A stretch of 64,000 nt of DNA from the NCBI GenBank assembly GCA_018434685.1, contig JAHDOV010000004.1, positions 348,808-412,807 on the forward strand, written 5' to 3'. Shown piece after piece: positions 5,124 to 64,000 of the stretch. Source of the stretch: Deltaproteobacteria bacterium. GTDB taxonomy: Bacteria > Desulfobacterota > Desulfomonilia > UBA1062. The first letter of the stretch is position 1; every line of letters begins with the position of its first letter. The translations under genes and the position numbers were made by a program. A model generated the notes under the pieces. That model was not told the origin of the DNA. It did not search any database and was given only the letters and a program-made list of their open reading frames with translations.

Positions 5124-5200
5124 ATAATTGGATAGTCCAATAAATGCAGGGACGTGTCAAGCAATAACTGCAGGGTCTGATCCCTGAGAGATTGTATCGA

Positions 5201-21177: not shown

Positions 21178-21268
21178 CTCCCACCGGCAGGGGAATACGG
21201 GGGTCTGAGGAACCGTGGAAAGGCCCCCGTGACCGGGGAGTATGGCCACGGGGAACGCTGCAGAAAGG

Positions 21269-42516: not shown

Positions 42517-42780
42517 TGAAAGAGGCAGCTGCCGATTCCCATCCTCATGGCCGGTGAATCGTTCGCATGCAGGCCCGCTGTTTTCCGGTCATTCTGAAGA
42601 ACAAGTTGTGGCAATCGGCACGGCAATTTCCCTATCACCTCCTGATGCCGTAAGGGAAACGGGTGCTGAAAACAGGGCGAAGAGAAGAGGGTGAGCGATA
42701 AATTCTGATTGACAGAAACGTGGCGTCCGTGTATGCAGCTACGGAAAACGGTTGCCGATAACCTTCCTATAAGGGATGCT

Positions 42781-43791
42781 ATGTTTGTATATGAAGAGAT
42801 AGAGAGAAAGAGTATCGTTATCCTGCGGATTCTCAATCAGGCAGGGCAACCCCTGGGAGCCCGCCTGATCGCCCGGAAGATGAAGGACTACGGGGTAAAC
42901 CTCAGTGAGCGGGCTGTGCGCTACCATCTCCAGTTCATGGACCAGAAGGGACTGACGGACCTTGTGGGGAGGAGAGACGGCAGGGTCATCACGGAAAAAG
43001 GCATCGAGGAGCTCAGGAATGCACGGGTGCAGGACAAGGTGGGGTATGCGATCTCCCGTATTGAGATCCTCTCGTACAAGACCACCTTCGACATCACCCG
43101 GAAAACAGGCCAGGTACCGGTCAATGTCTCTCTCTTCCCGGCACGGATCTTCCCCGATGCCCTCTCCGCCATGAAGGATGCCTTTGATGAAGGGTTCTGC
43201 GTGAGCGATCTCTGCTGTGTGGCAAGAGAAGGCAGATTTATCGGCGACATGCCTGTTCCGGCCGGATTCGTCGGGTTCGCAACGGTATGCAGCATCATAT
43301 TCAACGGTGTCCTGCTGAAACGTGGTATACCCATGGATTCTCAGTTCGGCGGCATTGTCCAGATGCAGGAGAAAAAGCCCATACGGTTTATCGAGCTCAT
43401 TCACTATTCCGGCACGTCACTCGATCCATCGGAGGCCTTTATCAGCGCGAAGATGACCGCGGTCAGAGACGTTATTTCCGGGGGTGACGGGAAGATCCTG
43501 GCAAACTTCCGCGAGATTGCAGGCATCTGCCGGGAAAGTGTCGGCGAGATCGTGGAGATGCTCGGCAAGGTAGGGATCCGCGGTGTCCTCTCCATGGGCA
43601 AGATGGGTGAGCCTGCCTGCCAGGTGCCGGTGGATGTTAACAAGGTCGGCATGGTGCTGATGGGCGGGCTCAATCCGGTCGCATCGGCCCGTGAGAAGGG
43701 GATCGAAACCGAGAACTTCGCCATGTCCACGGTGATGGACTACATGGATTTAAAGCCATTCTCTGAGATTTATCGTGAGATGAACGGATGA
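42781..43791 (+). CDS. NrpR-like transcriptional regulator (wHTH + NrpR/DUF128 domain)
   Basis: Internal ATG 42781 (MFVYEEIERKSIVILRILNQAGQPLGARLIARKMKDYGVNLSERAVRYHLQFMDQKGLTDLVGRRDGRVITEKGIEEL) matches the NrpR N-terminal wHTH pattern, followed by a DUF128-like body. Located 38 nt upstream of gdhA. Confidence 0.55.
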   Translation: MFVYEEIERKSIVILRILNQAGQPLGARLIARKMKDYGVNLSERAVRYHLQFMDQKGLTDLVGRRDGRVITEKGIEELRNARVQDKVGYAISRIEILSYKTTFDITRKTGQVPVNVSLFPARIFPDALSAMKDAFDEGFCVSDLCCVAREGRFIGDMPVPAGFVGFATVCSIIFNGVLLKRGIPMDSQFGGIVQMQEKKPIRFIELIHYSGTSLDPSEAFISAKMTAVRDVISGGDGKILANFREIAGICRESVGEIVEMLGKVGIRGVLSMGKMGEPACQVPVDVNKVGMVLMGGLNPVASAREKGIETENFAMSTVMDYMDLKPFSEIYREMNG

Positions 43792-43817
43792 GCACAATAA
43801 CAACGATGATAAACTAG

Positions 43818-45167
<1,350 letters not shown>

Positions 45168-45364: not shown

Positions 45365-47727
45365 TCAATGATCGAGTTCGATCCTCGTCCTGCTGATGAT
45401 CTCCTGTTTCACCGTATCGGGGAGTTCATCGAAGTACGCACAGTACCCGGCCACCCGCACGACTATGCCGGGGTGCTTCCCGGGGTGCGCCCGTGCGTCG
45501 GCAAGCACCTCCGGATCAACGACATTGAGCTGCATCTCCATACCGCCCGATGCAAAGAACCCCTCGGTGAGCGCGGTCATGATTTGGAGACCCTTGGGCC
45601 CGGCAAGGGTTCCGGCATCGAAACGGAGGTTGAGCGCATACCCGTTGGCTGCCAGGGAGGAGTCCACCCGGGCCACGGAGTTCAGCAGGGCCGTGGGTCC
45701 TTGGCGGTCCACCCCGTTGCAGCACCCGAGCGATGCGGCCAGGGGCTCGTTGCTCCTCCTTCCACTCGGCAATGCCCCGGTGCGTTTGCCGAATCCCACG
45801 TGGGTCGACGATGAGTAGAATCCCGGGATGTAGGGTCCGCCCCTGGTGTTCGTGTACTTTGCCAGGGCGTCATGGAAGATGTGCGCAGTCAGGTCTGCAT
45901 ACCGGTCAGGAAGATCCTGATCATTGCCAAACTTGGGGGCTGCCCTGAGCTCTGCTCTGAGCATGTCCGCCCCGGTAAAGTCGTTCATCATGGCAGCGAT
46001 CACCTCGGGGAGGCTGTAGGACTGTTTTCTGAAGACAACCTCGTCGATGGCGGCAAGGGAATCGGCCACATCGGCCACGCCCACGCCCTGGATGCCGCTC
46101 GAGTTATACTGCGCCCCTCCGGCTGTCACGTCGCGGCCACTTTCCAGGCACCCTTGACCAGCATGGAGGAAAAAGGCGTGGGATGGAAGTCGCGGTTTGC
46201 CTTCTCGATAATCCGGATGTCCGTGATCAGGCGGCTCACCAGGTGATCCACCTGTGCCCTGAAGGCCTCGATGACATCGTCCATGGTCCTCAAGAGAGAC
46301 GGATCAGGGGTTTTGGCCCCGATCCCGAGCCTTTTGCCAGGTCTTCTGCCCCGATTCAGGGCAAGAATCAGGCACATGGGCAGATTGATCAGTGCCGCAT
46401 CGGTGGAGCAGAAGCTTCTGCCCGGCATGGTTGGCTCCACGCACCCCACCACCCCGTAATCGCGGGCCTCTTCGATGGTGTATCCATGGGCCGTGAGCGC
46501 GGCAATGGTGGCCTCATCATTGAACAGTCCCGGCACGGCGTTCCCTTTGCAGGCCACCTCCACGGCGCGCTTCACGTACTGCTCGGGTGAGACGTGGCTG
46601 ATCCGGGCCATGTAGTTGGGGTCGCGCAGGCCTGCCAGCTCCATGACGTCGAGGAACAACCAGGTCAGGTCGTTGACCGCATCGTTGCCCTTGCTGTTCA
46701 CGCCTCCCACCGTGGCTGCCTGGGCTACCAGGTACCCGCCGTGGTACTCGCTTACCCTGCTGGAGAGCAGGAACATGTGCTCGGTGGTCTTGGCTGAGAA
46801 GCACAGGAGCAGCTCCAGTGCCCTGTCCCTGCCAATTCTTCCGGCCTCCATGTCAGCTTTGTAGAAAGGATAGAGGTACTGGTCGATCCTGCCGAAGGAT
46901 ATGGCTGAATTCAGCCCCTCGAGGCAGACCGCCATGTGGGTGAGCCACAGCGACTGAAGGGCCTCCTGCAGTGTTTCTGCAGGTTCCAGGGGAACCTTTG
47001 CGCAGATGCGCGCGATTTCAAGGAGCTCCTGCTTCCGCACCGGGTCGCTCTCGCCGGCGGCGAGCCGACGTGCCTCGCCGGAGAGTCTGCCCGCGTAGGC
47101 GGCAAGGCCCTCGCAGGCGATGAGCGCGGCCGCGTGGAGGTCGCTTCCCTTCTCGTCGATCGTCTCCATGTAACCCTTGATGCCCTGTGTGATCATCCGG
47201 TCGTAGCCGGGCAGGAAGTGGCCGATGCCGCCGCTCTCATTGATGAGGTAGGATGAGGCATCCAGCTGCTTCAGCACGTAGCGGCCCAGCTTCGGGTTGT
47301 ACCATCCGAAGGCCCGGGACACCATGTTCCGGGTGAGCCAGTAGGGCAGCACCTTCACGAGGAGTGTCAGCTTGTCCCGCCAGGGTACGGGGTAGGGGTT
47401 GGTTTTCCTCCTGTCCATCCACAGGAGCTCCTCGCTCATGACCGCGCCGGCGAGTTCGGGCTGGATAATGGCTGACTTTCTCTTGCTTCCGACATTTCCG
47501 ACAATGAGTTCATCATCAAATATGGTAGCGGACTTGTTCTGCAGCAGATAGTTCAGTGCCCTGGCCTTGCGGATCACCATGGGCTCTTTCTTGTTGTCGT
47601 GTTTTTTGAAGAATTCGGTGACGAGTTCTGCCCGCTCGGTGCAGAGCATGACCGGGTTCGACAACAGTTCGTTTTTGATCCGGCTGAACCGTGCAGGTGT
47701 CTCTGACGATACCGCCATGTCTCTCAT
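45365..47727 (-). pseudogene. glycyl radical enzyme, PFL2 family (GRE-2), interrupted by an apparent 1-nt deletion in a G-run near 46150 (possible pseudogene or sequencing error)
   Basis: The N-terminal ORF 46126-47727 ends ...TPFSSMLVKGAWKVAAT*. The alternate frame over the same bases reads GCLESGRDVTAGGAQYN, a conserved GRE motif, and continues into ORF 45365-46129, which carries the glycyl radical motif RVAGY. A Cys-loop GCVE is present. Confidence 0.7.
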
Positions 47728-47749
47728 GGGTTTTTCTCCTGTTTCACCA

Positions 47750-48610
47750 TCATGGCTGCGCCGGGAAATTCACCACGGGCGTCAGGGCCTCTTCGGGGTA
47801 AATCTGGCCGTGCAACGGCGGCATGGAATTGTAGACCCAGTCGATGTCCACCGTGCCCAGAGAGGCACCTCTGCACTTCTCAATCCCGTTAAAGGTCCCG
47901 CGCACCAGGACATCTTCCATGTCCATGGTCAGGCCGAAGACGGCAACCCTGCTTCCGGGAGCGATTCTGAGGAGCTCCTCTTTATAGGCAAGGGGTGAAA
48001 AAGCAAGCCTCCTGCTGTCGGCGGCCTGACACTGAATGAGCGGAATGAGCGCAGGGAATCCGTCATGATCGATATATGAGATGAAGACGATGGCATCGAG
48101 CCTGTTGAACAGGCCCTGTGCCCAGGGTTTCAGGATGCGGTCTTTCACCCCTGTTCTGGCACCTGATTTAACCGCCATAGTAACGAGCGAAGAGAGGATT
48201 ATTCTTGCCAGGGGAAGGGATTCCCTGCCGTAGGTTTCCTTGAGGTCCATATAGTGCACGGTATGGATACCTAGGTAGGCGTTGTAGCGGAACATGGGTT
48301 TGGTATTGAACATCTCATAGTCCGCGCCGTGCTTTACTTCATGTGTCCAGACGGCCTTGCCTCGCCACAGGCTCCTGTCCATGGTCATGATGAGAAATGC
48401 CGTCTTCGGGTTTTTTTTGACATGCTCCTTGCTCTTCCCATTGGAGAACTGACCCCAGATGATCTGTTCCGGTGATTTTGCCTGCAGTGCGGTGATGAGC
48501 GTGACGTGCGGCTGGCCCTCGGGATTGATCGTTGCGATGAGCCCCACCTTTGCCTCGGGCTCGAATTCCGGCATATCCTTTTCATCAAAGGCAGTAAATA
48601 TTTTATTCAT
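47750..48610 (-). CDS. tandem pyridoxamine-5'-phosphate-oxidase-like (FMN-binding split barrel) protein
   Basis: Start MNKIF with GGAGGG RBS. Its ATG overlaps the activase stop (ATGA). Two PNPOx-like halves (KVGLIATINPEGQPHVTLITAL; AIVFISYIDHDGFPALIPLIQ). Confidence 0.55.
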   Translation of the reverse strand: MNKIFTAFDEKDMPEFEPEAKVGLIATINPEGQPHVTLITALQAKSPEQIIWGQFSNGKSKEHVKKNPKTAFLIMTMDRSLWRGKAVWTHEVKHGADYEMFNTKPMFRYNAYLGIHTVHYMDLKETYGRESLPLARIILSSLVTMAVKSGARTGVKDRILKPWAQGLFNRLDAIVFISYIDHDGFPALIPLIQCQAADSRRLAFSPLAYKEELLRIAPGSRVAVFGLTMDMEDVLVRGTFNGIEKCRGASLGTVDIDWVYNSMPPLHGQIYPEEALTPVVNFPAQP

Positions 48611-49665
48611 GAACTTCCCTCCTCTGTACAAACTCCACCATTGACCAGTCCAGCAGATGGCGAACCCTCGTCCTGACCTGCCGGGATCCCCGTAGGACCG
48701 CTTGTCTGAACAATTGACGGGTCAACGCCCGAACCTCTGGCAATATCAGCAAAATATTCCAGCTCCTGCTTGCTCATGAGTTTGAAATCCCTGCATGCCC
48801 AGTGCAGGCCGAGCCCGTCATACTTGTGCGTGCACAGATTGTTGAACGAGCAGAGCTCCCAGTGAGAGACACTATCGCCGAGCTTGTCAGCGATAAACTC
48901 TCCGATACCCAGGATATTGTCTTGTGTCGCGGTATGCCCAGGGATGATGGGGGTGCGGACCCAGAGCTGTGCCGGTCTGGCGCACGTCTTCATTGTCTCT
49001 GCAACAAAGACGAGATTGTTCAGGATCCGCTCATTGGTTGCCCCGGTAAAGCGCCTGTGCCTTTCCGGGTCGATCTCTTTGATATCGTACAGGACCAGAT
49101 CCGCATGTTCGATAACCTTGGCCAGATTCTTCTGCGGGCATTGGCCGCAGGTATCGAGCGCCGTGTGGATTCCTCGCTCCCTGAGTTCTCTGAGGAATGC
49201 AGCGGCAAACGGCGCCTGCATGGTGGGTTCTCCCCCGGAGATCGTGATACCGCCACGGGATTTTTCAAAATAAATCCTGTCCTTGAGCACTTCCGAGACC
49301 AGCTCGTCGAGAGCCCATTCCTGGCCAAGCGCCTCGAGGGCAGTGGAGGGGCAGGCGTTTGTGCACGAAAGACAACCGGTGCAGAGGCTGCGGTCGATCT
49401 GCACGCCGTCGGGCGTGAGGGAAAGCGCTCCCTGTTCACAGGTGTCCAGGCATGTCCTGCAGCCGATGCACCTGCTCTTTACCCAGTGGACCTGCGGGTG
49501 TGGTGATATGCTCTCAGGGTTGTGGCACCAGGTGCACTGTAAGGGACAGCCCTTGAAAAAGACCGTGCTCCTGATCCCGGGACCGTCCTCGGTGGAAAGC
49601 CTCTGAATCCTCAAGATGAGGGCCTTTGCGGCTTCAGCTGTTGTCGAGTCATTCATGAGAGGCAT
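48607..49665 (-). CDS. glycyl-radical enzyme activating protein (radical SAM with extra ferredoxin-like clusters)
   Basis: CxxxCxxC radical-SAM motif (CPLQCTWCHN) plus two additional Cys clusters (CIGCRTCLDTC; CTGCLSCTNACP) typical of PFL2-type activases. Confidence 0.85.
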   Translation of the reverse strand: MPLMNDSTTAEAAKALILRIQRLSTEDGPGIRSTVFFKGCPLQCTWCHNPESISPHPQVHWVKSRCIGCRTCLDTCEQGALSLTPDGVQIDRSLCTGCLSCTNACPSTALEALGQEWALDELVSEVLKDRIYFEKSRGGITISGGEPTMQAPFAAAFLRELRERGIHTALDTCGQCPQKNLAKVIEHADLVLYDIKEIDPERHRRFTGATNERILNNLVFVAETMKTCARPAQLWVRTPIIPGHTATQDNILGIGEFIADKLGDSVSHWELCSFNNLCTHKYDGLGLHWACRDFKLMSKQELEYFADIARGSGVDPSIVQTSGPTGIPAGQDEGSPSAGLVNGGVCTEEGSS

Positions 49666-49668
49666 CCT

Positions 49669-52185
49669 TTAGAGGCCTTCGTGGCTGATCCGGGCAATAA
49701 CCTCGTCCTGGAGTTCCTTGCCGATGCTCGTGAAGTAGGCGTTGTACCCGGTTATCCTCACCAGCAGGGACGGGTAGTTCTCGGGATTCTTCTGTGCGTC
49801 GCGCAGCATGTCGGCGTCGACCATGTTTATCTGGAGCGACGACCCGCCGTTTTCTATGCAGCCCTTTAAGAAGGCCTTGAATTTATCCCGGTGCTTTTCG
49901 TCTCTCAGGAGCGAGGGGCTGATGGTGATGGTGTGGCTCGCACCGTTGGGCAGACAGCTGCAGTACCCGTTCCAGTCGCCGCTTCCGTCTGGCAGCCTTC
50001 CGCCAAAGGCCTTGCCCACTGAATTCATATTCGCCGTGGGGCCGTTGATGTCTGCGCCGTTCGAGGGACAGATGGCATTCGAGAGGAACTGCCCCTTGGG
50101 CCTGCCATTGGGGCTTGCCGGAAGGATAAAGCCGTCGCCCACCCAGTAGTTCCAGCTGAGCATGCCCGGCCTGAACTGGCGCTTGGTGCTGGCGGTTGTA
50201 TGCCTCCAGGTCTCATTGCACCAGAGGTCCATAACTTTTCGGGCCATGTCGTCTGCGACATCATCGTCGCGCCCGTATTTCGGTGCCTTGAACCTGGCCT
50301 TGGCCTGGAGCACCTCGTTGTCCTGCCAGTTTGCCCTGAGTGCATCGATGAGCTCGGCCATGGTGCACTCGTGATTGTCGAAGACCAGGTATTTGATGGA
50401 GAGGAGGGAATCCACGGTAGTGGCAAAGGTGACTGCCTCCAGCGTGGTAAAGTTCAGCTCCGCCCCGCCCTGGGTGATGTCGATCCCCTTTTGAGCACAC
50501 CCCCTGATCAGGCAGGAGAGGTACGGGGTGGGGCAGAACCTGGCACGGATGGACTCTGATTTCTCATAGAGGTCGACGCACCGTTTGATGATGGCCCTGG
50601 TCTGCTGCGCATATGCCTCCCAGAACTCCTGCCAGGCAGCAAACGTTGCCGCATCCCCGGTGTTTGGTCCGTCCTGTTTTATCTTGTCCCTCTTGCCGGT
50701 TATAGGGTCAACGAATTCAAGCAGGTCCCTGCCCCCGGTGAGCGCAAGTTCCACGGCCTTGAACAGGTTGAGGTTGTTGTCCACGGTCCCGGACCTGTCA
50801 TTGCCCACCATGGTGTTCTCCAGGCAGCCCACCGGCGCATAGTCGTGCACGTTGTCCTCGTTGATGAGCTCTTCAACCCCGGCCCTTTTCGCCTCGTGCA
50901 TCATGCCGGCAATGGAGCGTTCGTCAAAGTTCAGGAGGAAGGGTGATCCCTGGCTGGATGAGATCATGTCCACAACCGTATCCAAAAGTTTTTCAGGAGA
51001 ACCCTGGTGAAGCCGGACATTGGGTTTGGGCTCCAGGATGGGCGACATCTCGTCGATCACCTCCAGCATGGCATAGGTCAGCTCGTTTGTCATGTCTTTG
51101 CCGAGGGCACCCAGGCCGGAGAGCGTTATGAGCTGGCCGTAGCCGGCGGTGATTCCCTGGTTGCCGGTACGGATCATGGCATCATAGACCGTGTTCGCAT
51201 GCATCCAGAAACACTTCATGAGCTCCTTGCCGAACTCCCGGTCCATGCCTTGACCCAGGGAATATTCCCAATACGGCAGGAGATACTGGTCTATGCGTCC
51301 GAAAGAAACCCCGGGGCCCGGATAGTTCTCGTCGCTCATGATGAGCATGTGAGTCATCCACAGGGCCTGAAGGGCCTCCCAGAATGTTTGAGCCGGCTCC
51401 CAGGGCACCCGTTTCAGGTTCTGTTCCATCTGCGCAAGTTCGCTCTTACGGGCAGGGTCCTTCTCCTTTGCGGCGAGGTCTGCGCACACATCCGCATACT
51501 TTGCGGCGAGCTCTCCCGGCATGGTGGCGGCAGTCATCATGGCCCTGATCTGTGCGCCTTTTGGCCCCCTCTTATCGGAAGTACTCAGGGTTTCATACCG
51601 GGCCCTGAGGTCTTCATAGATCCCCTTCCATCCGATTTTCAAAGCCCGCTCGTATCCCGGGATGATGTGCCCGCTCGTTGCCCCTGAATTGCCGTAGCCA
51701 TGGTCGTGGAACCACTTCATCGAAGCCCTGGCGCCATCTTTCCCGTAGATGAGCCTGTCCCGGGAGCGTGCCTCCTCCCTGGTCCAGCATTTCGATGTCT
51801 GGAGGTTGAAGCGGGCACCTGCGATGAGATCGCCGGGCAGGATCTCCTGGGGCACATGGTTCACCATGACCTCTTTTACAAACCAGGCCTTTCTCTCAGG
51901 CAGGCTCCTGGACCAGAAGTCGTCCGGCAGGGTGAGAGTGCGGGCCGCCTGGTACATGGAAGACCGGAATGTCTGCATGAAGGCATATGTCTCCGGGACG
52001 ATGTAGAAGGTCATCTCGTCGAAGATGACATCCCACGGCGTACCGGTTGTCCATGCGGTGAACTCATTGTTCCACACCCGCTTCGAGCCCAGGAAGTAGT
52101 AGTCGCGCAGGTACTGTATCCTGGGGGAGAGCCCTCTCGGCTCCTTTACCTGGTAACGGGCCTGTGGCGTTGTTGAAACGCTCAT
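49669..52185 (-). CDS. glycyl radical enzyme, PFL2 family (GRE-1), unknown substrate
   Basis: 838 aa. Cys-loop VGCLENT (GCxE eliminase-type), GRE core motifs (SFGRIDQYL; TPYLSCLIRGCAQKGIDITQGGA) and glycyl radical motif RITGYNAYF. Confidence 0.8.
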   Translation of the reverse strand: MSVSTTPQARYQVKEPRGLSPRIQYLRDYYFLGSKRVWNNEFTAWTTGTPWDVIFDEMTFYIVPETYAFMQTFRSSMYQAARTLTLPDDFWSRSLPERKAWFVKEVMVNHVPQEILPGDLIAGARFNLQTSKCWTREEARSRDRLIYGKDGARASMKWFHDHGYGNSGATSGHIIPGYERALKIGWKGIYEDLRARYETLSTSDKRGPKGAQIRAMMTAATMPGELAAKYADVCADLAAKEKDPARKSELAQMEQNLKRVPWEPAQTFWEALQALWMTHMLIMSDENYPGPGVSFGRIDQYLLPYWEYSLGQGMDREFGKELMKCFWMHANTVYDAMIRTGNQGITAGYGQLITLSGLGALGKDMTNELTYAMLEVIDEMSPILEPKPNVRLHQGSPEKLLDTVVDMISSSQGSPFLLNFDERSIAGMMHEAKRAGVEELINEDNVHDYAPVGCLENTMVGNDRSGTVDNNLNLFKAVELALTGGRDLLEFVDPITGKRDKIKQDGPNTGDAATFAAWQEFWEAYAQQTRAIIKRCVDLYEKSESIRARFCPTPYLSCLIRGCAQKGIDITQGGAELNFTTLEAVTFATTVDSLLSIKYLVFDNHECTMAELIDALRANWQDNEVLQAKARFKAPKYGRDDDVADDMARKVMDLWCNETWRHTTASTKRQFRPGMLSWNYWVGDGFILPASPNGRPKGQFLSNAICPSNGADINGPTANMNSVGKAFGGRLPDGSGDWNGYCSCLPNGASHTITISPSLLRDEKHRDKFKAFLKGCIENGGSSLQINMVDADMLRDAQKNPENYPSLLVRITGYNAYFTSIGKELQDEVIARISHEGL

Positions 52186-52197
52186 GGTAGCCTCCTG

Positions 52198-52923
52198 TCA
52201 TTTGTGCGGGAGAATTGATCTCAGGTGGGTCTCTCCATGGTCGAGGATCTCGCGCATGATTGCTATGGAACGGTCCTGGTCCTTGGCCGAAATGGCCTTC
52301 ACCAGTTTTTTGTGAAAGTCGAAGGTAGCCGGCACCACGCTGGGGTCTGTGAAGAACAGAGAGGTGAAGTTCATATACACCGGCTTGAACGAGTTGATGA
52401 GGAGGGGGTAGATGATGTTTCCCGAGGCAATGCCGATGAGGTGGTGAAATTCGAAGTCTGTCCGGGTAATTTTCTCGAGATCGTCCTTTGAAAGTGCATC
52501 CTCACGGTTCAGGATCTGCCGGAATGCCTCGAGGTGCTCAGGTGTCCTGTGGACGGCTGCGAGCCTGGTGGTCTCGATCTCGATGAGGCTTCGTGTCCGG
52601 ATCAGGCCTTCCAGGATAGCGGGATCGAGCCGCCCTTCCTGATAGTTGATGAGCGAGGTGAGGACGGCGAGAGACCCCTGGGACCTGAAGTCGTTCACCA
52701 CGGTGCCGACCCGGGGCCGCATGGTAACGAGCCCCTTTGCTGCCAGATCCACGAGCCCTTCATGAACGACAGGCCTGCTGACGCCCAGCTGGAGGGCAAG
52801 CTCCCGCTCGGGAGGCAGTTTCTGGCCGATGGCGATCTTTCCGGTGAGGATCAGGTTCTCGAACCGGGAGATGAAGACCTCCTTGAGGCTCTCGGTCTTG
52901 AGCGGTTTGAGCATGTCCCTCAT
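52198..52923 (-). CDS. GntR/FadR-family transcriptional regulator, heads the GRE locus
   Basis: wHTH (IGQKLPPERELALQLGVSRPVVHEGLVDLAAKGLV) plus FCD domain. Confidence 0.75.
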   Translation of the reverse strand: MRDMLKPLKTESLKEVFISRFENLILTGKIAIGQKLPPERELALQLGVSRPVVHEGLVDLAAKGLVTMRPRVGTVVNDFRSQGSLAVLTSLINYQEGRLDPAILEGLIRTRSLIEIETTRLAAVHRTPEHLEAFRQILNREDALSKDDLEKITRTDFEFHHLIGIASGNIIYPLLINSFKPVYMNFTSLFFTDPSVVPATFDFHKKLVKAISAKDQDRSIAIMREILDHGETHLRSILPHK

Positions 52924-53474
52924 GACTCCTCCCTTTGGCAGGTGGTAATACCAGCAGCCACTATACCCCGGGGAGAACCGGCATGCAAGGGAAAAGATGG
53001 CATGCCTGAGAGTCGGTTCGATAAAGGCATGATCCCTCCATTGCGTAACAGGGAGATCACAGCGGATCCACGTTACTATTGCCTTTCACTTTTTATTTAT
53101 AATAGGGTATAGTTACACCTGAGAGTAAATCCGTGAGTGCGTCTTTATGATCGTTTGAGGTTGAACATGGGGAGAAATGGATTTAAGAACCCAATATATG
53201 TGAAATATTATACACATAATTGGCAATATTTTACCCATAAAACCTTTTTTTCTTGCAGGCCGAAGTTGTTTCTGGAAGCCTACTTTGTTGAAATACGTGA
53301 TGAAAACTGAATAATCTCGTATTGCATGGATTTTGCTTTATTTTAAGTGCCATTGTAAAGATGGATAGGGCCTCGATGATATCTCTTTGAAGGGATGATG
53401 CGGGGAGACGGATTGGCAGGGCGTAGTACTCAGACAAACAAAAAAGGATAGCTTCCTGTTCTTTTTGGAATGAG

Positions 53475-57674: not shown

Positions 57675-58826
57675 ATGAGCAGATACCAGGGCAGCCCGTG
57701 CAATGTATTAATCAGGCAGATAGCGTTAATCCTGTTTATCGTCTTTTCCGGCGCAGGAGTTGTCTGTGCCTCCGGGAATACCATGTCAAGCGGATTTCAC
57801 TATGACTGGTGGGATAGTGACGAGGGTGATAAAGGGATGCAGTTGTACCTCCCGATACAGGCCGCCTCAGAGTATCGAGGGGTTTCTTTCGAGGTGCTCA
57901 CTGCCTATGCATACACCCGGGTCGATCCTTCCGGCGGCTCGAAGCGGTCTTTGAGCGATTTTGTGGACACAAAGGTGAATTTCGCCTATCCCCTCGAGGG
58001 AAGATACGGCTGTGATATCGTCTTTGGGCTCGGGTTCAATCTGCCCACCGGTCACACGGACCTGAGCACCAGGGATCTGGTGCTTGTTGTCCCTCCTGAT
58101 CTCATGTCCATCAACTCCTTCGGGGAGGGGCTGAACATGAATCCCCGAGTCAGCATCGCCAGGCAGTGGGGAAAGCTCGTGGCAGGGATAGGCCTGGGAT
58201 ATGCCTGGCGCGGTGAATATGACTACAGTGACGGTGTCGAGGATTACGACCCGGGCGAGATATTCACCCTGACCGGTGAGGCTGCCTATGAGTTTTCTCC
58301 CCAGTGGTATGGTAAGGCCTACGGGGAATATGAATCCTTCAGCAAGGACACCGTCGATGGAGATGATTATTACCAGGAAGGCGATGTAACGCTCATGGGC
58401 CTCGGGCTGAGCTATGTCCAGCCTGCATGGGACCTGGGCTTGAGCCTGACCGGCATCTTCAGGGACAAGAGCAAAATACAGCAGGGCACCATCGTGCCCA
58501 CGGAAGCGAAAAACAGCCATGGCGATGAGTGGATAGCAGCAATTGTATACCGGTATTTTCAGGACAAGGACACCACGGTGAGCACGTCACTGGAATATCT
58601 TTCTTTGCAGGAAAACGACTATGATGCGAGCTCCCTGTACTACATCGGCAAGAGGCAGAAGATCACGCTCGGGTGCATGGTAAGCAAGATTTTGAAAAAA
58701 GATCTCGAGGCCTCGGCAGAGATAAAGGGATTCATCATGGATGATGAGAAGAACTGGTATCACCCGGGTGAGGACTATAGCTACAGGGGATTTTCGCTGG
58801 GGGCTTCGGTAACCAAGGGCTTTTAG
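57675..58826 (+). CDS. outer-membrane beta-barrel protein
   Basis: Signal peptide MSRYQGSPCNVLIRQIALILFIVFSGAGVVCASG. Aromatic-rich alternating strands. C-terminal ...GASVTKGF with terminal Phe. Confidence 0.6.
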   Translation: MSRYQGSPCNVLIRQIALILFIVFSGAGVVCASGNTMSSGFHYDWWDSDEGDKGMQLYLPIQAASEYRGVSFEVLTAYAYTRVDPSGGSKRSLSDFVDTKVNFAYPLEGRYGCDIVFGLGFNLPTGHTDLSTRDLVLVVPPDLMSINSFGEGLNMNPRVSIARQWGKLVAGIGLGYAWRGEYDYSDGVEDYDPGEIFTLTGEAAYEFSPQWYGKAYGEYESFSKDTVDGDDYYQEGDVTLMGLGLSYVQPAWDLGLSLTGIFRDKSKIQQGTIVPTEAKNSHGDEWIAAIVYRYFQDKDTTVSTSLEYLSLQENDYDASSLYYIGKRQKITLGCMVSKILKKDLEASAEIKGFIMDDEKNWYHPGEDYSYRGFSLGASVTKGF

Positions 58827-58894
58827 ATTTCGAAGTAATATTCGGATAGGTATTCTAACATTTTTTAGGATAACTACTTCCTAACTTATTCTTT

Positions 58895-59086
58895 TTTTAT
58901 GTTACTTTCTTTGCGTGCACAAGAGAAAGTAACCAAAGAAATGCACCCCGCGAAGCCGCCCTTCGGGTTCGTTCGCTCACTCGGGAAAAATCAGCTCGCA
59001 ATTAAACTCGCTCCATTTCATTACGCTCAGACAGAATTGCTCGTTTTTCTGATTTTTCCCTCCCTCGCTCACCGGCTTCAAGGGGA
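58895..59086 (+). repeat. about 190-bp structured repeat, left copy, inverted relative to 62711-62908
   Basis: About 85-90% identical to the reverse complement of 62711-62908. Contains a terminal 10-bp-stem hairpin (58901-58933), a CCC-UUCG-GGG hairpin and a GGGAAAAATCAG...CTGATTTTTCCC long stem. The listed ORF 58899-59129 is an artefact. Confidence 0.8.
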
Positions 59087-59295
59087 CCCGGGGTTCAGCG
59101 CTGAAATTCACTGTCTGGAAAAGAATTAGCTACCATCAATACCGGTGCACATAACCATGGGAGATATGGATCAGGTCATGTTGCTTAAAAGTAAATAGTC
59201 GTCGCAGATATATGCATTTTGTAACATGTCGATCACCGTGGCTGAAAGCCGTCCGTTGGTTTGCCTTGTTGGATTACAATTTGGCTGTCTTCACC

Positions 59296-61692
59296 TCATG
59301 TTTCAAAGCCTTCTTTATCTCTTTCCGATCTTTTGCTGGTAAGCTTTCTCCTGCGCTTTTTTCTCTCTGCGTCACTCCACTCAGACCACGAAGGGAGGTT
59401 AAGATAGAGTTGTAGAGTGGCGTCGGCAAGCAAATTGAGTTCTCTCAAATCATAATCGCGCTCACTATAGCGATCGTACAAACCACCTTTATCTTTCCAA
59501 GCCTCTCCGATACTATGGGAAAAAAGTTCCATGCCCGTCAACACAATAACATGGCTGCTCACTTTTCTATTCAATCTTTTCCTTCGTTCAGAAAGTGCCA
59601 GATTTCGTATCATCTTTACTTCTGATTCCTCTAATGCATTGTTGAGCGTTGCGAAGACCAGCGCAGCTCCAGGAAAAGCAACGGCCAAGTCCTTCATTCG
59701 GTCTATGTCCTTGCGTTCGAATTTATTGAAACTCTTACACTCTGCATGAACGATGTAGGTCCCCTTCTTGCGCCATGTAGATGGCTTGTATAGGCAGGTG
59801 AAATCTGCCTCTAAACGTTTCCCGTCTTTCTCCGCTATATAACTAAAAAGAGGAGTGACAAAACGATCAAAATCACCACCCAATAGCCTGAGAGTAAGCA
59901 GAACCGTAAAAGCTCCTTGGGCAACGGACCCTGCGAAGGGACCATGAGCCCGGTATGTCCATTGAATATTTTTAGGAGACTTCAGTGGTGGTGAGTAGTC
60001 AGAGAGACAGAAACGACAGCGTAGTTCATAGTCGAGCTCATTTAGTTGATACCAATTGTAGCGCGTACACACAGGACATTGAACTTTAGCCCCTAACCTC
60101 AAGGCGTTTACGGACAGCAATCCTTCCAGAAAGCGTTCAGCATCGTAGAATAGTCCGTCTGACTGGATAACTTGTTTAAGCTTCGCTACGACCGCCTGGT
60201 AAGGTTTTCCAGCTTCTTTCTCCAACTCCCCAAGCAACTCTACAACGCCATAGTGGGCGAGTTGCGAAATGCCGTAAACACCGCCGAGCTGCTTCAAAAG
60301 CTGTTTTGCGATTCTTCCAGGTCCAGATAAGGATACTTTCCAACCTCGTTCTCGAAACCAATGGGTCATGACTTTCTCAGATCGAGGTAGGTCGAGGAAT
60401 ATCAAATCCCTGTAATTGTGTGCTAAAAAAACAGGGCCAAATTTCGAAAATCGCCAATTGAAGTAACCTAGGTTTCCTATTGCTGAGGACAATTCTCGGC
60501 TTCCTTCAGGAAAAACCTCGGCTAGGGGCTCCTTTGATGTGAAAAATCGAAAGCTGAATTCGTTGGCAAATTTAGGTTTGCCTGAGTAATCTTGAAATAC
60601 GTCGATTTCCGGATCTTGCGACCGCAGCTCCAGTCTCTCCTCGCCCTCAGTGATTCTTCGCTCCTCCTCGTAGGCAAAGGGAAAAGCGATGTCCTCGCCG
60701 GGCACGTTGTCGCGCGCCCAGGCATCCCATAAGCGAGGATACCACCACTGAAGTAGGTACTGATCAGGTTTCGGGATATTTAGCGAGTGGCAAAAATCTT
60801 TGACCAAATCCTCTGAAAGCGAACGGGACCTCTGGACTGTGGTGTGGTAAAACATTTCAGGATTGTGCCTATAAGGCTGATAATTTTTTTCGATGAAGTT
60901 CAAGGCAAATGCCTTTACGCTGGCCATGTTCGCGACCTGGATGGGGATCGGAATCACATTGACGCCTGCAGCTCGCAGATTCCAGTAGTCGATTACGTCT
61001 TGGGCACTTGTTGCGTCGCAAACGAACAAAGTGGGGTTGCGAAGAGGTTTTTCCTGTAATGCCCAAGAGCTTAACCTTCGAGGAAATAGGTTAGGTGACT
61101 TCAGAATGTCAAGAAGCTTGCTCAGAGTTACTTGGCTTTTTGAAATGCCCGGATGGGTAAGGAAATGCTCGTCGATGATCTTCTGGGCTGTCTTCGGAAG
61201 CACGCCAAAGACACTTGCTAAGAAGAGACGGTAGGCTCGCGGTAATTCAAGAAAAATGACCTGGAGATCATCATTTCTCTTGTATTTCAGCTCTTTCTTG
61301 ATGAAATCATTCAGTAAATCGATCAACCCGATGCCGTATGTGGGGGTTACTGAGTTTTCTAAAGCTCCAATCAATTCATCAGCGTTAATGATGTCTCGAT
61401 TACCCACCTGAAACACACGATTTGCGCAACTACCAATGGGTACCACCAGATCGGGGTCAAACCCGGTTAAGTATCCTTCAACAATCTCCGAAGGAAGTGG
61501 AAGATGCCGAACACGATGAGCCTCCCATTTGACAGGAGTACGACGGTAAACCGGAATTATTGGATTATAACTTCCACCCCAAAGGAAAGTGCTGAGTTCG
61601 ATAGCGCGGAAAAGCCCCACACGATCTGCGGGATCAACCAGAAATCCCACTCTTAAGGGTCGTACTTTAATGTTTATGTTTCCCGAAGCCAC
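59296..61692 (-). CDS. large uncharacterised protein (798 aa) with zinc ribbon and putative PD-(D/E)xK nuclease-like C-terminal motif; candidate defence/mobile-element protein
   Basis: GTG start at 61690-61692. C-x2-C-x17-C-x2-C (CPVCTRYNWYQLNELDYELRCRFC). D...ExK candidate (EADFTCLYK...TYIVHAECKSF). Lower GC than the flanking genes. No similarity to any family I recognise. Confidence 0.6.
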   Translation of the reverse strand: MASGNINIKVRPLRVGFLVDPADRVGLFRAIELSTFLWGGSYNPIIPVYRRTPVKWEAHRVRHLPLPSEIVEGYLTGFDPDLVVPIGSCANRVFQVGNRDIINADELIGALENSVTPTYGIGLIDLLNDFIKKELKYKRNDDLQVIFLELPRAYRLFLASVFGVLPKTAQKIIDEHFLTHPGISKSQVTLSKLLDILKSPNLFPRRLSSWALQEKPLRNPTLFVCDATSAQDVIDYWNLRAAGVNVIPIPIQVANMASVKAFALNFIEKNYQPYRHNPEMFYHTTVQRSRSLSEDLVKDFCHSLNIPKPDQYLLQWWYPRLWDAWARDNVPGEDIAFPFAYEEERRITEGEERLELRSQDPEIDVFQDYSGKPKFANEFSFRFFTSKEPLAEVFPEGSRELSSAIGNLGYFNWRFSKFGPVFLAHNYRDLIFLDLPRSEKVMTHWFRERGWKVSLSGPGRIAKQLLKQLGGVYGISQLAHYGVVELLGELEKEAGKPYQAVVAKLKQVIQSDGLFYDAERFLEGLLSVNALRLGAKVQCPVCTRYNWYQLNELDYELRCRFCLSDYSPPLKSPKNIQWTYRAHGPFAGSVAQGAFTVLLTLRLLGGDFDRFVTPLFSYIAEKDGKRLEADFTCLYKPSTWRKKGTYIVHAECKSFNKFERKDIDRMKDLAVAFPGAALVFATLNNALEESEVKMIRNLALSERRKRLNRKVSSHVIVLTGMELFSHSIGEAWKDKGGLYDRYSERDYDLRELNLLADATLQLYLNLPSWSEWSDAERKKRRRKLTSKRSERDKEGFET

Positions 61693-61841
61693 ATTCTCTC
61701 ATCTTTCTGATTATTGAAATGCTCATAAAGCCAGGTGGTAATCCTGGACTAACATATTCAAGGACCCGACGTAGGCATAAGCAGCACAAGCGCATCCCGC
61801 GTTGATCTGCTTGCATTTGATCGGCCTTTTAAAAAACCCAT

Positions 61842-61880
61842 TCAGGCGGGGCGAGGGGGGAATCGAACCCCCCGCGCTTA
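61842..61880 (-). other. tRNA 3'-half-like fragment (T-arm GGGGG-TTCGATT-CCCCC plus acceptor 3' strand); no complete cloverleaf
   Basis: Minus-strand sequence gcgcGGGGGGTTCGATTCCCCCCCTCGCCCCgcc. No plausible 5' acceptor partner sits within tRNA distance (nearest is about 117 nt upstream). Confidence 0.4.
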
Positions 61881-62153
61881 CTCCCATATATAAAAGGTGA
61901 AAGTCACAGCAACTCATCCGTTCCCCTGTAGGGTTGTAGATCGCCCCAGCAGCGCTCCCCCCGCCACTACACAAATCAATTTGATAGTTGTTCCCATTTT
62001 GACCTCCATTCTCGTCTTAATCTCAATAGCTAAGCTCCCAACTATTTGGATTAATAACGATAGGCCCAATATGAACCCAACTAGGAACACATATGATTCG
62101 ATGTAACTGACACCTATACATGGGCATCCTTTACATAATTCAGATAAATAACT

Positions 62154-62393
62154 TTATTCTCTTGGGAGTAGATCTTTTGCATTCCGGGATGGAATAGGCA
62201 GCCCTTTTTCTTTCAGGTGATCAATAAGACGCTGCTCATAAGGCGGAGCCCAGCCATCCCAGTTACCCTCATAACAAGACATGCAGACAGAAATGTTATA
62301 ACTCTTAATGTATCTTCCATCATACACATGTGGGCCCATTTGAAATTGCCCATCACAAATAAAACATTTATCCATGAACTTCTTTTCAGACAT
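62154..62393 (-). CDS. small zinc-ribbon protein (79 aa) in a very AT-rich segment
   Basis: Internal start MSEKKFMDKCFICDG...CMSCYEG (two CxxC pairs) with GGAGGA RBS 5 nt upstream. Surrounding 61.98-62.70 kb is conspicuously AT-rich. Confidence 0.5.
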   Translation of the reverse strand: MSEKKFMDKCFICDGQFQMGPHVYDGRYIKSYNISVCMSCYEGNWDGWAPPYEQRLIDHLKEKGLPIPSRNAKDLLPRE

Positions 62394-62710
62394 GTGTCCT
62401 CCAATGCCTAAATGCAGAAAGATACTATGCAGATAAAAAGGTTGCATATGGGCTGTTAGCTAAGCAAATGCAGATATAAAACAACAAGCTCATAACACCT
62501 TTCAATAAATTCAATTAATCTTAATATTATATCATTATCTGCAAATTAATGTCCATATGTTTCCTCAACGGCATAAAGTAGAAGATTATAGATCCCGTGC
62601 CAATATGTTCCATAACCCAAGAATGCACATAATCATTAGAGACCTATTGCCTCTCTTGGTGATATGTTTTGAGAGATCATAGCTGAATAACTCAGCACCA
62701 GAACCAATTC

Positions 62711-62908
62711 CCCCTTGAAGCCGGCGAGGGAGTGCAGGAAAAATCCGAAAGACGAGCAATTTTGTCTGAGCGGAATGAAATGGAGCGAGTTTAATTGCGA
62801 GCGGATTTTTCCTGTGCGAGTGAGCGTACTCCGCTGGAAGCGGAGCGGCTTCGCGGGGGTGCATTTCTTTGGTTACTTTCTTTCGTGCAAGCAAAGAAAG
62901 TAACATAA
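62711..62908 (-). repeat. about 190-bp structured repeat, right copy (inverted)
   Basis: Reverse complement aligns with 58895-59086. The stems are maintained by compensatory changes (CAGGAAAAATCCG...CGGATTTTTCCTG; CTCCGC-ttcca-GCGGAG). The listed ORF 62586-62906 is an artefact. Confidence 0.8.
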
Positions 62909-63011
62909 ATACATATAGATAGAATCAAGCTATCGATTAAATAGGCCCTTTAGTAAAGTGACATAGGTAACACTCTAAAAAAATAGATTTGAAAGAACAC
63001 CCTCCTATGGG

Positions 63012-63047
63012 AAATAAAAAAGGGGACCTTGTTGAAAGGCCCCCTTG
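63012..63047 (-). terminator. probable terminator hairpin downstream of the CsgG-like lipoprotein gene
   Basis: gaaataaaaaa-GGGGACCTTgttgAAAGGCCCCC; on the minus strand the hairpin is followed by TTTTTTATTTC. Confidence 0.45.
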
Positions 63048-63134
63048 TGTTCTTCAAATGCTCTACTAAGGTTTATCTACAAATCTTCTTCTACGAAAGG
63101 CCCCTATGCCTCCATATTAAACAACCCATTGTGT

Positions 63135-63626
63135 TCAGAACAACTCCAGTGCCGCACCCCTGGCCGCATCGAGCCAGGCCGATATCCCGGTCTCCGTTGT
63201 GGTCTTCTGCGCCGCACGCACGATCTTGCCGGTGCTGACATCCACGAGCCGCAGGTCGATGCGCATGGTCTCGCCGAGCACCTGAAAGGCACCGAACACC
63301 ATCTGCTGTGCCCCTGCCATCTTTCCGATTCGGAGCCTGGTGTTCTCGTCTGCAAGGTCCGACGATCCGAGGTTCAGCTCCTCGAGCACGAGGAGCAGTT
63401 GCTGGCGTTCCACCACCTGGTACGATCCTTTGTCACTGATCGTCTCCATCACCCCGGAGGTGAGGATCTGCCCCAGGGCCTCTCGGGAAGAGTCATCGTA
63501 ACTCAGATTCTCCAGATCCCAGACAGCGATGGTAGCCGGGCCGGTCTGCGTCGGGGTTGTTGCACACCCTGAAAACAGGATCAGGAAGACCAAGGAGGTC
63601 CAGAACAAAGCGCGCTTTGAGAGCAT
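63135..63626 (-). CDS. CsgG/LpoB-like lipoprotein
   Basis: Internal start MLSKRALFWTSLVFLILFSGC (lipobox) with AGGGATAAGGG RBS. IAVWDLENLS...VVERQQLLLVLEELNLGSSDL pattern like the 53475 gene. Confidence 0.6.
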   Translation of the reverse strand: MLSKRALFWTSLVFLILFSGCATTPTQTGPATIAVWDLENLSYDDSSREALGQILTSGVMETISDKGSYQVVERQQLLLVLEELNLGSSDLADENTRLRIGKMAGAQQMVFGAFQVLGETMRIDLRLVDVSTGKIVRAAQKTTTETGISAWLDAARGAALELF

Positions 63627-63630
63627 ACCC

Positions 63631-64000
63631 TTATCCCTCAGTGAGCGTCTTGTCGATCTTTTCCACTGCCTTGTCATCACGCTTGAGGGGCCGCTCCTGG
63701 TCGATTATCCTGCAGTAGGAAAGGTCCGGTTCAACGATTGTTACCTCGAGCCCGGCAATGTTCTTCGCTGCCTGCTGAAGTTTCTTTCCCTTGTATTCGA
63801 TGGGCTCCTGTTCTTCGATAACCCCGAATCTGCTGCCCATGACCACCCCCTGGTTTGATCCGAGGTTGATCATGACCTTGTCTCCGGTCACATTCACCAC
63901 ATAGGCCTGCAGGGGGTAGGTCGTCATGACCGTCGTGAGGATTTCCCTGTTGAGCTTGTGAAGATCTTTCTTCAGCGTGGCATCGGTGCTTAATTCCCGG
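63631..64000 (-). CDS. partial CDS (C-terminal part; gene continues beyond window end), hypothetical periplasmic protein
   Basis: Frame open from 64000 to the stop at 63631. The ORF-track start at 63927 is only the first in-window ATG. Ends 4 nt before the lipoprotein start. Confidence 0.5.
   Translation of the reverse strand, partial: RELSTDATLKKDLHKLNREILTTVMTTYPLQAYVVNVTGDKVMINLGSNQGVVMGSRFGVIEEQEPIEYKGKKLQQAAKNIAGLEVTIVEPDLSYCRIIDQERPLKRDDKAVEKIDKTLTEG

Follow-up and report, generated by a model that had tools for sequence, protein, structure and literature searches.

Gene layout and spread of the cassette

We analysed a stretch of 64,000 nucleotides from a Deltaproteobacteria bacterium (assembly GCA_018434685.1, contig JAHDOV010000004.1), referred to as the window, which carries on its minus strand a gene cluster with two glycyl radical enzymes (GREs), here called GRE-1 and GRE-2. 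Open reading frames (ORFs) of the window were checked against Pfam and NCBIfam for domains, and six minus-strand ORFs were found between 52923 and 45365. The first gene of the operon (52198..52923) encodes a 241-aa GntR-family regulator of the FadR/FCD subfamily (Pfam GntR 4e-17, FCD 5e-19, FadR_C 9e-19). It is followed by GRE-1 (49669..52185, 838 aa), with a PFL-like domain at residues 169-679 (PF02901, 6.5e-119) and a glycyl radical domain at residues 746-819 (PF01228, 3.5e-22), and then by a 352-aa glycyl-radical activating enzyme of the radical SAM type (48607..49665). This activase scored 303 bits on TIGR02494 against a cut-off of 174, matched Pfam Radical_SAM, Fer4_12 and Fer4, and contains a CX3CX2C motif (read as CPLQCTWC) together with two ferredoxin-type cluster motifs. 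Next comes a 286-aa PNPOx-like tandem split-barrel protein (47750..48610), the partner in what follows. Its ATG overlaps the TGA of the activase as ATGA, with a GAGGAGG ribosome-binding site before the overlap. GRE-2 starts 22 nt past the stop codon of the partner gene and was found as two pieces: an N-terminal fragment of 533 aa (46126..47727) with the PFL-like domain, the His and Cys-Val-Glu, and a C-terminal fragment of 254 aa (45365..46129) that completes the PFL-like domain and carries the glycyl radical domain with RVAGY. Both domains of the GRE superfamily are therefore present in GRE-1 and, across its two fragments, in GRE-2.

The locus had been described before in a prediction made from the same letters. 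The five genes that it placed here in this order on the minus strand were borne out by ORF calls, Pfam and NCBIfam, and the ATGA coupling of activase and partner could be read in the sequence. All motifs that it listed were found as well, namely VGCLENT, VGCVEPT, SFGRIDQYL, ALQALWMTHM, ALQSLWLTHM, RITGY in GRE-1 and RVAGY in GRE-2.

In a scan of one genome per species, a GRE-1 relative was detected in at least 588 species of the genome catalogue, and 80 loci (69-89% identity) were kept. ORFs were then called in 81 non-redundant loci and matched to the window proteins; the denominators below are the loci with room for the gene in question. Carriers include Syntrophales, Desulfobacterales (Desulfosarcina, Desulfonema, Desulfosudis oleivorans), Leptospirales/Spirochaetota, Myxococcota, Bacteroidales, Anaerolineae and Binatia. 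The PNPOx-like gene was found after GRE-1 in all 62 loci that extend at least 2.3 kb past GRE-1. The activase, which by its TIGR02494 score, its CX3CX2C motif and its position qualifies as a cognate one, followed GRE-1 in 65 of 66 loci, and a GntR gene preceded it in 48 of 74. Median identity to the window proteins was 72% for GRE-1, 60% for the partner, 57% for the activase and 56% for GntR. We looked for a fifth conserved gene by all-against-all ORF clustering of the 81 loci and by per-locus checks, and none recurred. A Pfam tally of 126 flanking proteins contained no family in more than four of them, and neither the clustering nor the tally revealed a conserved transporter, aldehyde or alcohol dehydrogenase or microcompartment shell protein. 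The conserved unit is a set of four genes: GntR, GRE-1, activase and the PNPOx-like gene. The original prediction had presented the locus as two GREs with one flavoprotein, and had made its case depend on the PNPOx-like gene being kept in this neighbourhood elsewhere. The gene is indeed kept, in 62 of 62 loci and beside two sister GRE clades, and it goes with GRE-1; GRE-2, however, is not part of the unit, adjoining the cassette in only five of the 81 loci.

Regulation of the cassette by GntR, also predicted originally, gained backing from a conserved candidate operator. In the window the putative GntR/FadR-type operator, TGGTATTACCA, was read directly in the sequence at 52943..52953 on the minus strand, about 20 nt before the GntR start codon. 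In 46 of 49 loci, boxes of the TGGTA(A/T)TACCA type, a few of them one-base variants, were found 12-77 nt before the estimated GntR start; the expected background is 0.02 per 310 nt. We take this box to resemble the PdhR box of E. coli. The regulator combines a winged helix-turn-helix and an FCD domain in Pfam with a palindromic operator of the TGGT-N3-ACCA type, as do PdhR, LldR and GlcC of E. coli, which have such an operator in the regulator's own promoter region. Its best NCBIfam similarities were to NanR, FadR, PdhR, LldR and GlcC, all far below the cut-offs (78-95 bits on the PdhR, LldR and GlcC models, with cut-offs of 189-330). The putative operator is of the classic FadR-subfamily shape, and the simplest reading of these sequences would be an operon that regulates itself in response to a small carboxylate. 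The window gave no match in Rfam and tRNA scans, so there was no riboswitch hint to the ligand.

Families and catalytic residues of the two GREs

GRE-1 aligned to Pfam and to all solved structures only from about residue 170. A large protein collection contained more than 120 GRE-1 clusters at 72-92% identity, nearly all of 834-842 aa (two were of 817 aa and four of 850-877 aa), and the named ones came from Deltaproteobacteria, Desulfomonilia, Syntrophobacteraceae and Spirochaetota metagenome-assembled genomes. A library with clusters at 50% identity represented the family by a single full-length sequence (66% identity). The N-terminal region of GRE-1 was shared only by about eight sister clusters of that library (34-50% identity); all other GREs, the GRE-2 family included, aligned from about residue 170 at 31-36% identity. 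Residues 15-170 were conserved like the core, with a mean column identity of 0.83 versus 0.82. By these comparisons GRE-1 is one tight, distinct clade of PFL2-type GREs with a unique and conserved N-terminus of about 170 aa, and the atypical N-terminus noted in the original prediction proved to be common to this clade and its roughly eight sister clusters only.

An AlphaFold2 model of GRE-1, built from an 18-sequence alignment, had a mean pLDDT of 53, with active-site strands below 50, and was too poor to be used. Residues were mapped by pairwise sequence alignments to solved GREs in the PDB, and invariance was judged in 18 family members. The invariant His173 of GRE-1 corresponded to His164 of glycerol dehydratase (GD), to the His of HypD and to Asp216 of CutC. 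In the Cys454-Leu-Glu456 loop, Cys454 corresponded to Cys433 and Glu456 to Glu435 of GD, with both Cys and Glu invariant. The position of the radical glycine is Gly813 in RITGY, again invariant. GRE-1 also contains insertions at about 483-512 and 724-745 and a distinctive invariant strand, MLSWNYW. The Cys-x-Glu motif, which defines the GRE eliminases and isomerases (PMC13450708), is present both in GRE-1 (C454-L-E456) and in GRE-2 (C-V-E), and the equivalent His of GD gives a proton to the leaving hydroxyl (PMC13450708). As far as the alignments go, GRE-1 has the catalytic residue set of a C-O-cleaving 1,2-eliminase and is an ortholog of none that has been characterised.

Neither GRE could be assigned to a characterised enzyme, which speaks for the original prediction, whose case would have failed had both fallen inside characterised clades: no curated equivalog cut-off was reached, GRE-1 scoring at most 351 bits (cut-offs 1000-1150) and repaired GRE-2 (see below) at most 491 (cut-offs of at least 994). 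For GRE-1, assignment as glycerol dehydratase failed at Ser282 and Asp447 of GD, which we take to be substrate-pocket residues and which are not kept, and on the PFL2 subfamily model TIGR01774 (390 against 678). CutC failed for both enzymes on TIGR04394 (300 for GRE-1 and 491 for GRE-2, against 1050), with His at the Asp216 position in both, and HypD failed on NF043068 (338 and 477 against 1100). Pyruvate formate-lyase was excluded by a G-C-L-E loop without the second Cys and by a TIGR01255 score of 87 against 994. The HypD and PFL labels in source annotations (HypD on some JGI records of GRE-1 homologs) lie below the curated cut-offs and were not adopted. A sulfonate C-S lyase, hinted at by sulfur-transport genes at locus L002 and by sulfatase neighbours, was rejected too. 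The Arg/Gln/Arg triad of IslA, IseG and HpsG was not matched, the one mapped IseG Arg (strand 669-680 of GRE-1) being an invariant Gly674, the score on the C-S lyase model NF048011 was 351 against 1000, and the neighbours are sporadic.

Among solved structures, the best match of GRE-1 was the PFL2 of Archaeoglobus fulgidus (2F3O; E 1.5e-86), which was the second best of GRE-2. It has Cys-x-Glu like GRE-1 and is itself uncharacterised; the match begins at residue 172 of GRE-1, so the N-terminal region is not common to both, and a June 2026 review of GREs (PMC13450708) mentions no split-barrel partner of this protein. GD and propanediol dehydratase (1R9D, 5I2G) share with GRE-1 the PFL-like barrel, the glycyl radical domain, Cys-x-Glu and the equivalent of His164. 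They also have a dedicated activase with two extra Fe-S motifs, and GRE-1 has a weak genomic link to glycerol. The alignment to GD is restricted to residues 171-835 (phmmer, 266 bits), and GRE-1 differs in its additional 170-aa N-terminus, its two insertions, the lack of accompanying dhaT or microcompartment genes and its obligate split-barrel partner.

GRE-2 had been described originally as a single gene, which does not hold in the window, where it is split by a 1-nt deletion in a run of G. The upstream frame (47727..46126) ends in SSMLVKGAWKVAAT followed by a stop, and the downstream frame (46129..45365) reads back as CLESGRDVTAGGAQYN. We aligned the window with the Logan assembly of run SRR13787007 (L001) and found one gap as the sole difference over 15,225 nt: at 46153..46151 of the minus strand the window has GGG and the other assembly GGGG. 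The extra G restores an intact GRE-2 of 787 aa. The homologs listed have full length (780-809 aa); the one exception is the 533-aa fragment of the window itself, which is an NCBI protein entry (P0296). Most likely, the frameshift is a homopolymer error of the deposited assembly. A true pseudogene, which would leave GRE-1 as the only functional GRE of this organism, seems rather unlikely to us: the split gene is present in the deposited genome and in the NCBI protein set, but an assembly otherwise identical across 15 kb has the intact ORF, the fault sits in a homopolymer run, GRE-2 shows no other damage and its homologs are complete.

The two GREs had been called paralogs on the strength of shared core motifs. 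The motifs are shared, but close paralogy is not supported: GRE-1 and GRE-2 are 31% identical over 678 aa, about what each shares with CutC, GD and HypD, and they belong to separate families. GRE-2 aligned over its whole length with CutC, A. fulgidus PFL2 and GD (E values of 1e-142 to 1e-153) and, once repaired, scored 629 against 678 on the PFL2 subfamily model. From these comparisons, GRE-2 is a canonical, uncharacterised PFL2-type GRE. At least 12 GRE-2 homologs from metagenomes (at least 68% identity) were on contigs sized like the GRE-1/partner contigs, which is circumstantial. Homologs at about 65% identity were orphans with no activase nearby, one of them in a metagenome-assembled genome that has the GRE-1 cassette on another contig (L087, L049). 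Because of these orphans, the GRE-2 family looks as if it relies on an activase encoded elsewhere and was placed behind the cassette in this lineage. GRE-2 would then be a lineage-specific add-on at a site where the one activase of the cassette could serve both GREs.

Some details of these loci may be recorded. The orphan genes (L086 and L087, 8001..10373; L085, 8001..10370) stand alone, with activase absent within 8 kb. An AFOR-type aldehyde oxidoreductase and an iron-dependent alcohol dehydrogenase were found nearby in L086 and L087, and a MaoC dehydratase and an IS66 transposase adjoin the gene in L085. One further locus (L027) encodes a second activase-like gene and a third GRE (4613..5551, 19089..21632) besides GRE-1 and GRE-2.

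The split-barrel partner

The AlphaFold2 model of the partner (pLDDT 83.8) contains two beta-barrel halves, residues 1-130 and 160-262. In Foldseek searches against the PDB it matched, with probability 1.0, HupZ, 2HTD (a putative PNPOx), 3F7E (an F420 reductase), 1WLK (the FMN-binding protein of Desulfovibrio vulgaris) and PhdC (a prenylated-FMN maturase). All are single-domain FMN, F420 or heme split-barrel proteins, and each covered about half of the query (111-140 aligned columns, TM relative to target 0.47-0.75). The modelled structure is thus that of a split barrel. The two halves aligned in register (hhalign E 0.0016), and both matched the same 150-aa single-domain relative (E 1e-8 and 3e-8). 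Since the halves align in register and match one relative, the partner looks like a fused pseudo-dimer of an ancestral single-domain split-barrel protein, and the tandem split barrel of the original prediction was confirmed at the level of model, fold search and alignment. An invariant G58-x-S60-K61 is present only in the N-terminal half and absent from the C-terminal half. This stretch sits where such split-barrel proteins bind the phosphate of the cofactor. Because the phosphate-binding-type motif is kept in one half only, the partner probably binds a single flavin-type cofactor. NCBIfam gave one sub-threshold match to an F420 PPOX-class model (19.6 against 79). An identity as PdxH was considered and dropped, as there was no PdxH match in NCBIfam. 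Homologs of the partner formed more than 3000 clusters.

The last 23 residues (264-286) had pLDDT below 50 and are disordered in the model. Invariant positions of the partner run through 258-272 (W258-V259-Y260-N261, M263-P264-P265, G268, I270-Y271-P272), and because those from P264 on lie in this low-confidence region, the tail suggests a docking segment.

Sister GRE clades revealed what the partner travels with. P0362, a sister of 50% identity, has an overlapping gene for a 293-aa PNPOx-like protein with no activase between (L088); this protein is 38% identical to that of the window and keeps the tail motif. At L020, GRE-1 is followed directly by the partner, again with no activase between. 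P0368, a sister of 43% identity with an intact GCLEN loop and RVTGYNAYF, has a gene for a 150-aa single-domain PNPOx_N protein just upstream, the very relative that both halves of the window partner matched, and its activase lies further downstream. No PNPOx-like gene was present in the loci seen of sister clades P0365 and P0366. Because the partner accompanies two sister GRE clades, and does so also where no activase stands between, it tracks the GRE rather than the activase. The association of GRE and partner is therefore old within this GRE subfamily, and the tandem form looks like a fusion of an ancestral homodimeric partner. Several other sister clusters lack the Cys or the whole glycyl radical domain, and the degenerate sisters (P0362, L088 260..3669, and P0365) may be pseudo-enzymes or perform other chemistry.

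Two sister loci had further features. P0365 (L090, 6753..10156) has no Cys and no glycyl radical domain, yet it adjoins an activase. The P0368 cluster at L094 (572..10394) contains the single-domain PNPOx_N gene, a 47-aa Cys-rich ORF, a fragment of an NAD-dependent glycerol-3-phosphate dehydrogenase, the activase, DUF4125 and GlpK, as well as a three-gene set of a glycerol-3-phosphate oxidase/dehydrogenase-like FAD enzyme, a second FAD oxidoreductase and DUF1667. A metagenome scan for P0368 relatives gave two true ones (73% and 46%) on short contigs; the others were generic GREs.

The original prediction did not recognise such a partner from any characterised GRE system, and the June 2026 review agrees. 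It groups GD, propanediol dehydratase, HpfG, HypD, HypG and HpzG as C-O eliminases, CutC as the C-N and IslA, IseG and HpsG as the C-S eliminases, beside the isomerases HplG, YbiW and PflD, decarboxylases, X-succinate synthases, formate lyases and aminoacyl radical enzymes (PMC13450708). It gives accessory subunits only for HPAD, BSS and MASS and none of a flavin type; the words FMN, flavoprotein and pyridoxamine are absent from its text (PMC13450708). HPAD gamma, BSS beta and gamma and MASS delta resemble the partner in being small, encoded beside the catalytic GRE, conserved with it and dispensable for the formal chemistry. They are Fe-S or rubredoxin-like, whereas the partner is a tandem FMN-type split barrel without cysteine motifs, whose binding to the GRE is inferred. 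The FMN-binding protein of D. vulgaris (1WLK and relatives) has the fold of each partner half, but it is a single-domain homodimer with no known link to GREs. Flavodoxin is a physiological electron donor to a GRE activase, but it has another fold and is not encoded with GRE operons. We found no publication on this GRE-1 clade or on its split-barrel partner, and the sole link was LssP, a PNPOx-like protein that is encoded and expressed within the limonenylsuccinate synthase operon, with no role assigned (PMC12583861). LssP goes with an X-succinate synthase and the partner with a Cys-x-Glu eliminase-type GRE, and the two are likened by description only. What is new here is a widespread GRE clade with an obligate partner of a fold not previously tied to GREs, LssP excepted.

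Candidate substrates, proposed mechanism and alternatives

Hints to the substrate were sought in the neighbouring genes. In six loci of one Syntrophaceae lineage (L013, L014, L016, L017, L023, L024) the GntR gene is replaced by a glycerol kinase gene directly upstream of GRE-1, and the kinase is a bona fide GlpK (NCBIfam 712 against 498; e.g. L024, 8480..9958). An SfMCT-type lactate transporter gene (448 against 320) follows the partner in at least three loci (L013, L017 and, at 14587..15810, L024); in L013 the gene next after it encodes a D-2-hydroxyacid dehydrogenase. The P0368 sister (43% identity) clusters with glpK and the glycerol-3-phosphate oxidase/dehydrogenase-like FAD enzyme. PlsC-type acyltransferases flank three loci. 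At L041 a fused 2-oxoacid dehydrogenase E1 is encoded upstream, and a thiamine pyrophosphate enzyme follows sister P0366. Other neighbours relate to nitrogen. On the plus strand of the window (42709..45167), an NrpR-like gene (WHD_RNase_R and NRD1_2) and a glutamate dehydrogenase gene run convergent to the cassette, and such genes adjoin it in about six relatives too. The NrpR-like gene also adjoins the cassette in relatives of 75% identity that have no GRE-2, which could be simple synteny or a nitrogen link. Locus L072 has an ammonium transporter gene (Amt) and an unannotated 114-aa ORF directly upstream. Because of the GlpK and lactate-transporter neighbours, found at a minority of loci, and the carboxylate-type regulator, the most likely substrate, proposed with low confidence, would be a small hydroxy acid or polyol of the C3 type, akin to glycerol, glycerate or lactate.

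We propose the following mechanism. The cassette would be a mobile, self-contained and autoregulated four-gene operon, repressed by the FadR-type GntR at its TGGTA(A/T)TACCA operator. The activase would install the radical on Gly813 of GRE-1, and Cys454 would then take a hydrogen from the hydroxylated carbon of the substrate. Glu456 would deprotonate that hydroxyl and His173 would protonate the neighbouring leaving hydroxyl, giving a carbonyl product. The partner would act as a GRE-bound accessory subunit, in a role comparable to that of the HPAD, BSS and MASS small subunits. Its most likely job would be to relay a single electron for activation or otherwise to control the radical state, and a role as a separate pathway enzyme is less likely. 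We regard this reading as a whole (an autoregulated operon, a separate eliminase-like GRE-1 clade and the split-barrel partner as accessory subunit) as being as probable as not.

Several observations weigh against it. A 1,2-elimination needs no redox partner, and the proposed chemistry leaves the role of the partner unexplained. P0362 keeps its partner despite a Phe in place of the catalytic Cys and a degenerate radical motif, a misfit with a simple thiyl-support role. In the pairwise alignment, GD Ser282 and Asp447 become Gly292 and Val468 in GRE-1. At the sequence level the partner is remote from all solved proteins: a sequence profile searched against the PDB gave a best E value of 0.02, so that no cofactor could be assigned by homology, and Pfam PNPOx_N scored 28.1, exactly at the threshold and in the N-terminal half only. 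The substrate hints are sparse (six of 81 loci and one sister locus), a glycerol kinase fits poorly with a carboxylate-sensing regulator, and elsewhere the neighbours are nitrogen-related (NrpR-like, glutamate dehydrogenase, Amt).

Other roles for the partner were considered. GRE-1 and the partner might form an obligate two-component enzyme in which the flavin supplies or removes electrons during turnover, making the net GRE reaction a reductive or oxidative one, in the way that class III ribonucleotide reductase depends on an external reductant. We give this version a low probability. The partner might instead be a downstream flavin or deazaflavin oxidoreductase that acts on the carbonyl or enol product of GRE-1, much as pyrroline-5-carboxylate reductase follows HypD. 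Its split-barrel relatives include F420- and FMN-dependent reductases (3f7e, 4qvb), the cassette has no other product-handling enzyme, and the partner gene still adjoins the GRE gene at loci without an intervening activase. Yet the cassette encodes no NAD(P)H-binding domain or separate reductase, most host lineages are not known to use F420, the invariant positions in a disordered tail and the degenerate C-terminal half look more like a docking module, and one sister clade retains the partner although the catalytic Cys of its GRE is gone. A pathway enzyme seems to us rather unlikely. That the partner is a dedicated low-potential electron donor to the activase [4Fe-4S] cluster, a flavodoxin substitute with no lasting contact to GRE-1, would agree with the ATGA coupling in the window, with its position after the activase in nearly all loci, with the in vivo use of flavodoxin by the PFL activating enzyme of E. 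coli (PMC13450708) and with the small D. vulgaris FMN-binding protein among the fold matches. It agrees poorly with L088 and L020, where the partner directly follows the GRE gene with no activase between, with L094, where it lies upstream of the GRE and apart from the activase, and with other GRE systems of the same phyla, which work without such a protein. We consider a pure donor unlikely.

A different chemistry for GRE-1 was weighed as well. As a C-N lyase it would serve nitrogen acquisition by splitting ammonia or an amine off an amino alcohol (ethanolamine or aminopropanol, for instance), which could come from phospholipid head groups. The NrpR-like and glutamate dehydrogenase genes in the window and its relatives and the genes upstream in L072 point that way, and the PlsC-type acyltransferases and GlpK at some loci would fit phospholipid turnover. 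We rank this nitrogen direction lower because GRE-1, like the dehydratases, has a His, invariant in its family, where CutC, the only known C-N-cleaving GRE, has Asp216. The nitrogen-related genes are moreover confined to a few lineages, the regulator belongs to the FadR type that senses carboxylates, and acetaldehyde-handling and microcompartment genes were not found among the 126 flanking proteins; altogether, a C-N lyase is very improbable.

The eliminase-like GRE-1 with an accessory split-barrel subunit thus stays our preferred reading. GREs perform chemically hard anaerobic reactions, and each earlier clade assignment has uncovered a new metabolic route, among them those for choline, hydroxyproline, isethionate and anhydro-sugars. 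The GRE-1 clade is among the better conserved ones, with about 70% identity across phyla at a fixed length of about 838 aa, and it is widespread, with at least 588 catalogue species from six or more major bacterial lineages. It offers testable handles in a compact one-activase cassette suited to heterologous expression, a defined operator, TGGTA(A/T)TACCA, through which the inducing ligand could be sought, and candidate substrates linked to glycerol, lactate and pyruvate. If the partner is a flavin subunit or an activation factor, it could ease the bottleneck of GRE activation in vitro. If a flavin of the partner is involved in turnover, the pair would represent a new class of GRE reaction with a new subunit type, and its occurrence in at least 588 species of anaerobes from sediments and digesters would then point to a major unrecognised turnover route of a common small metabolite.

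At the far end of the window, positions 58001..64000 had a G+C content of 0.47-0.48, against about 0.57 elsewhere in the window, and could be a foreign island.

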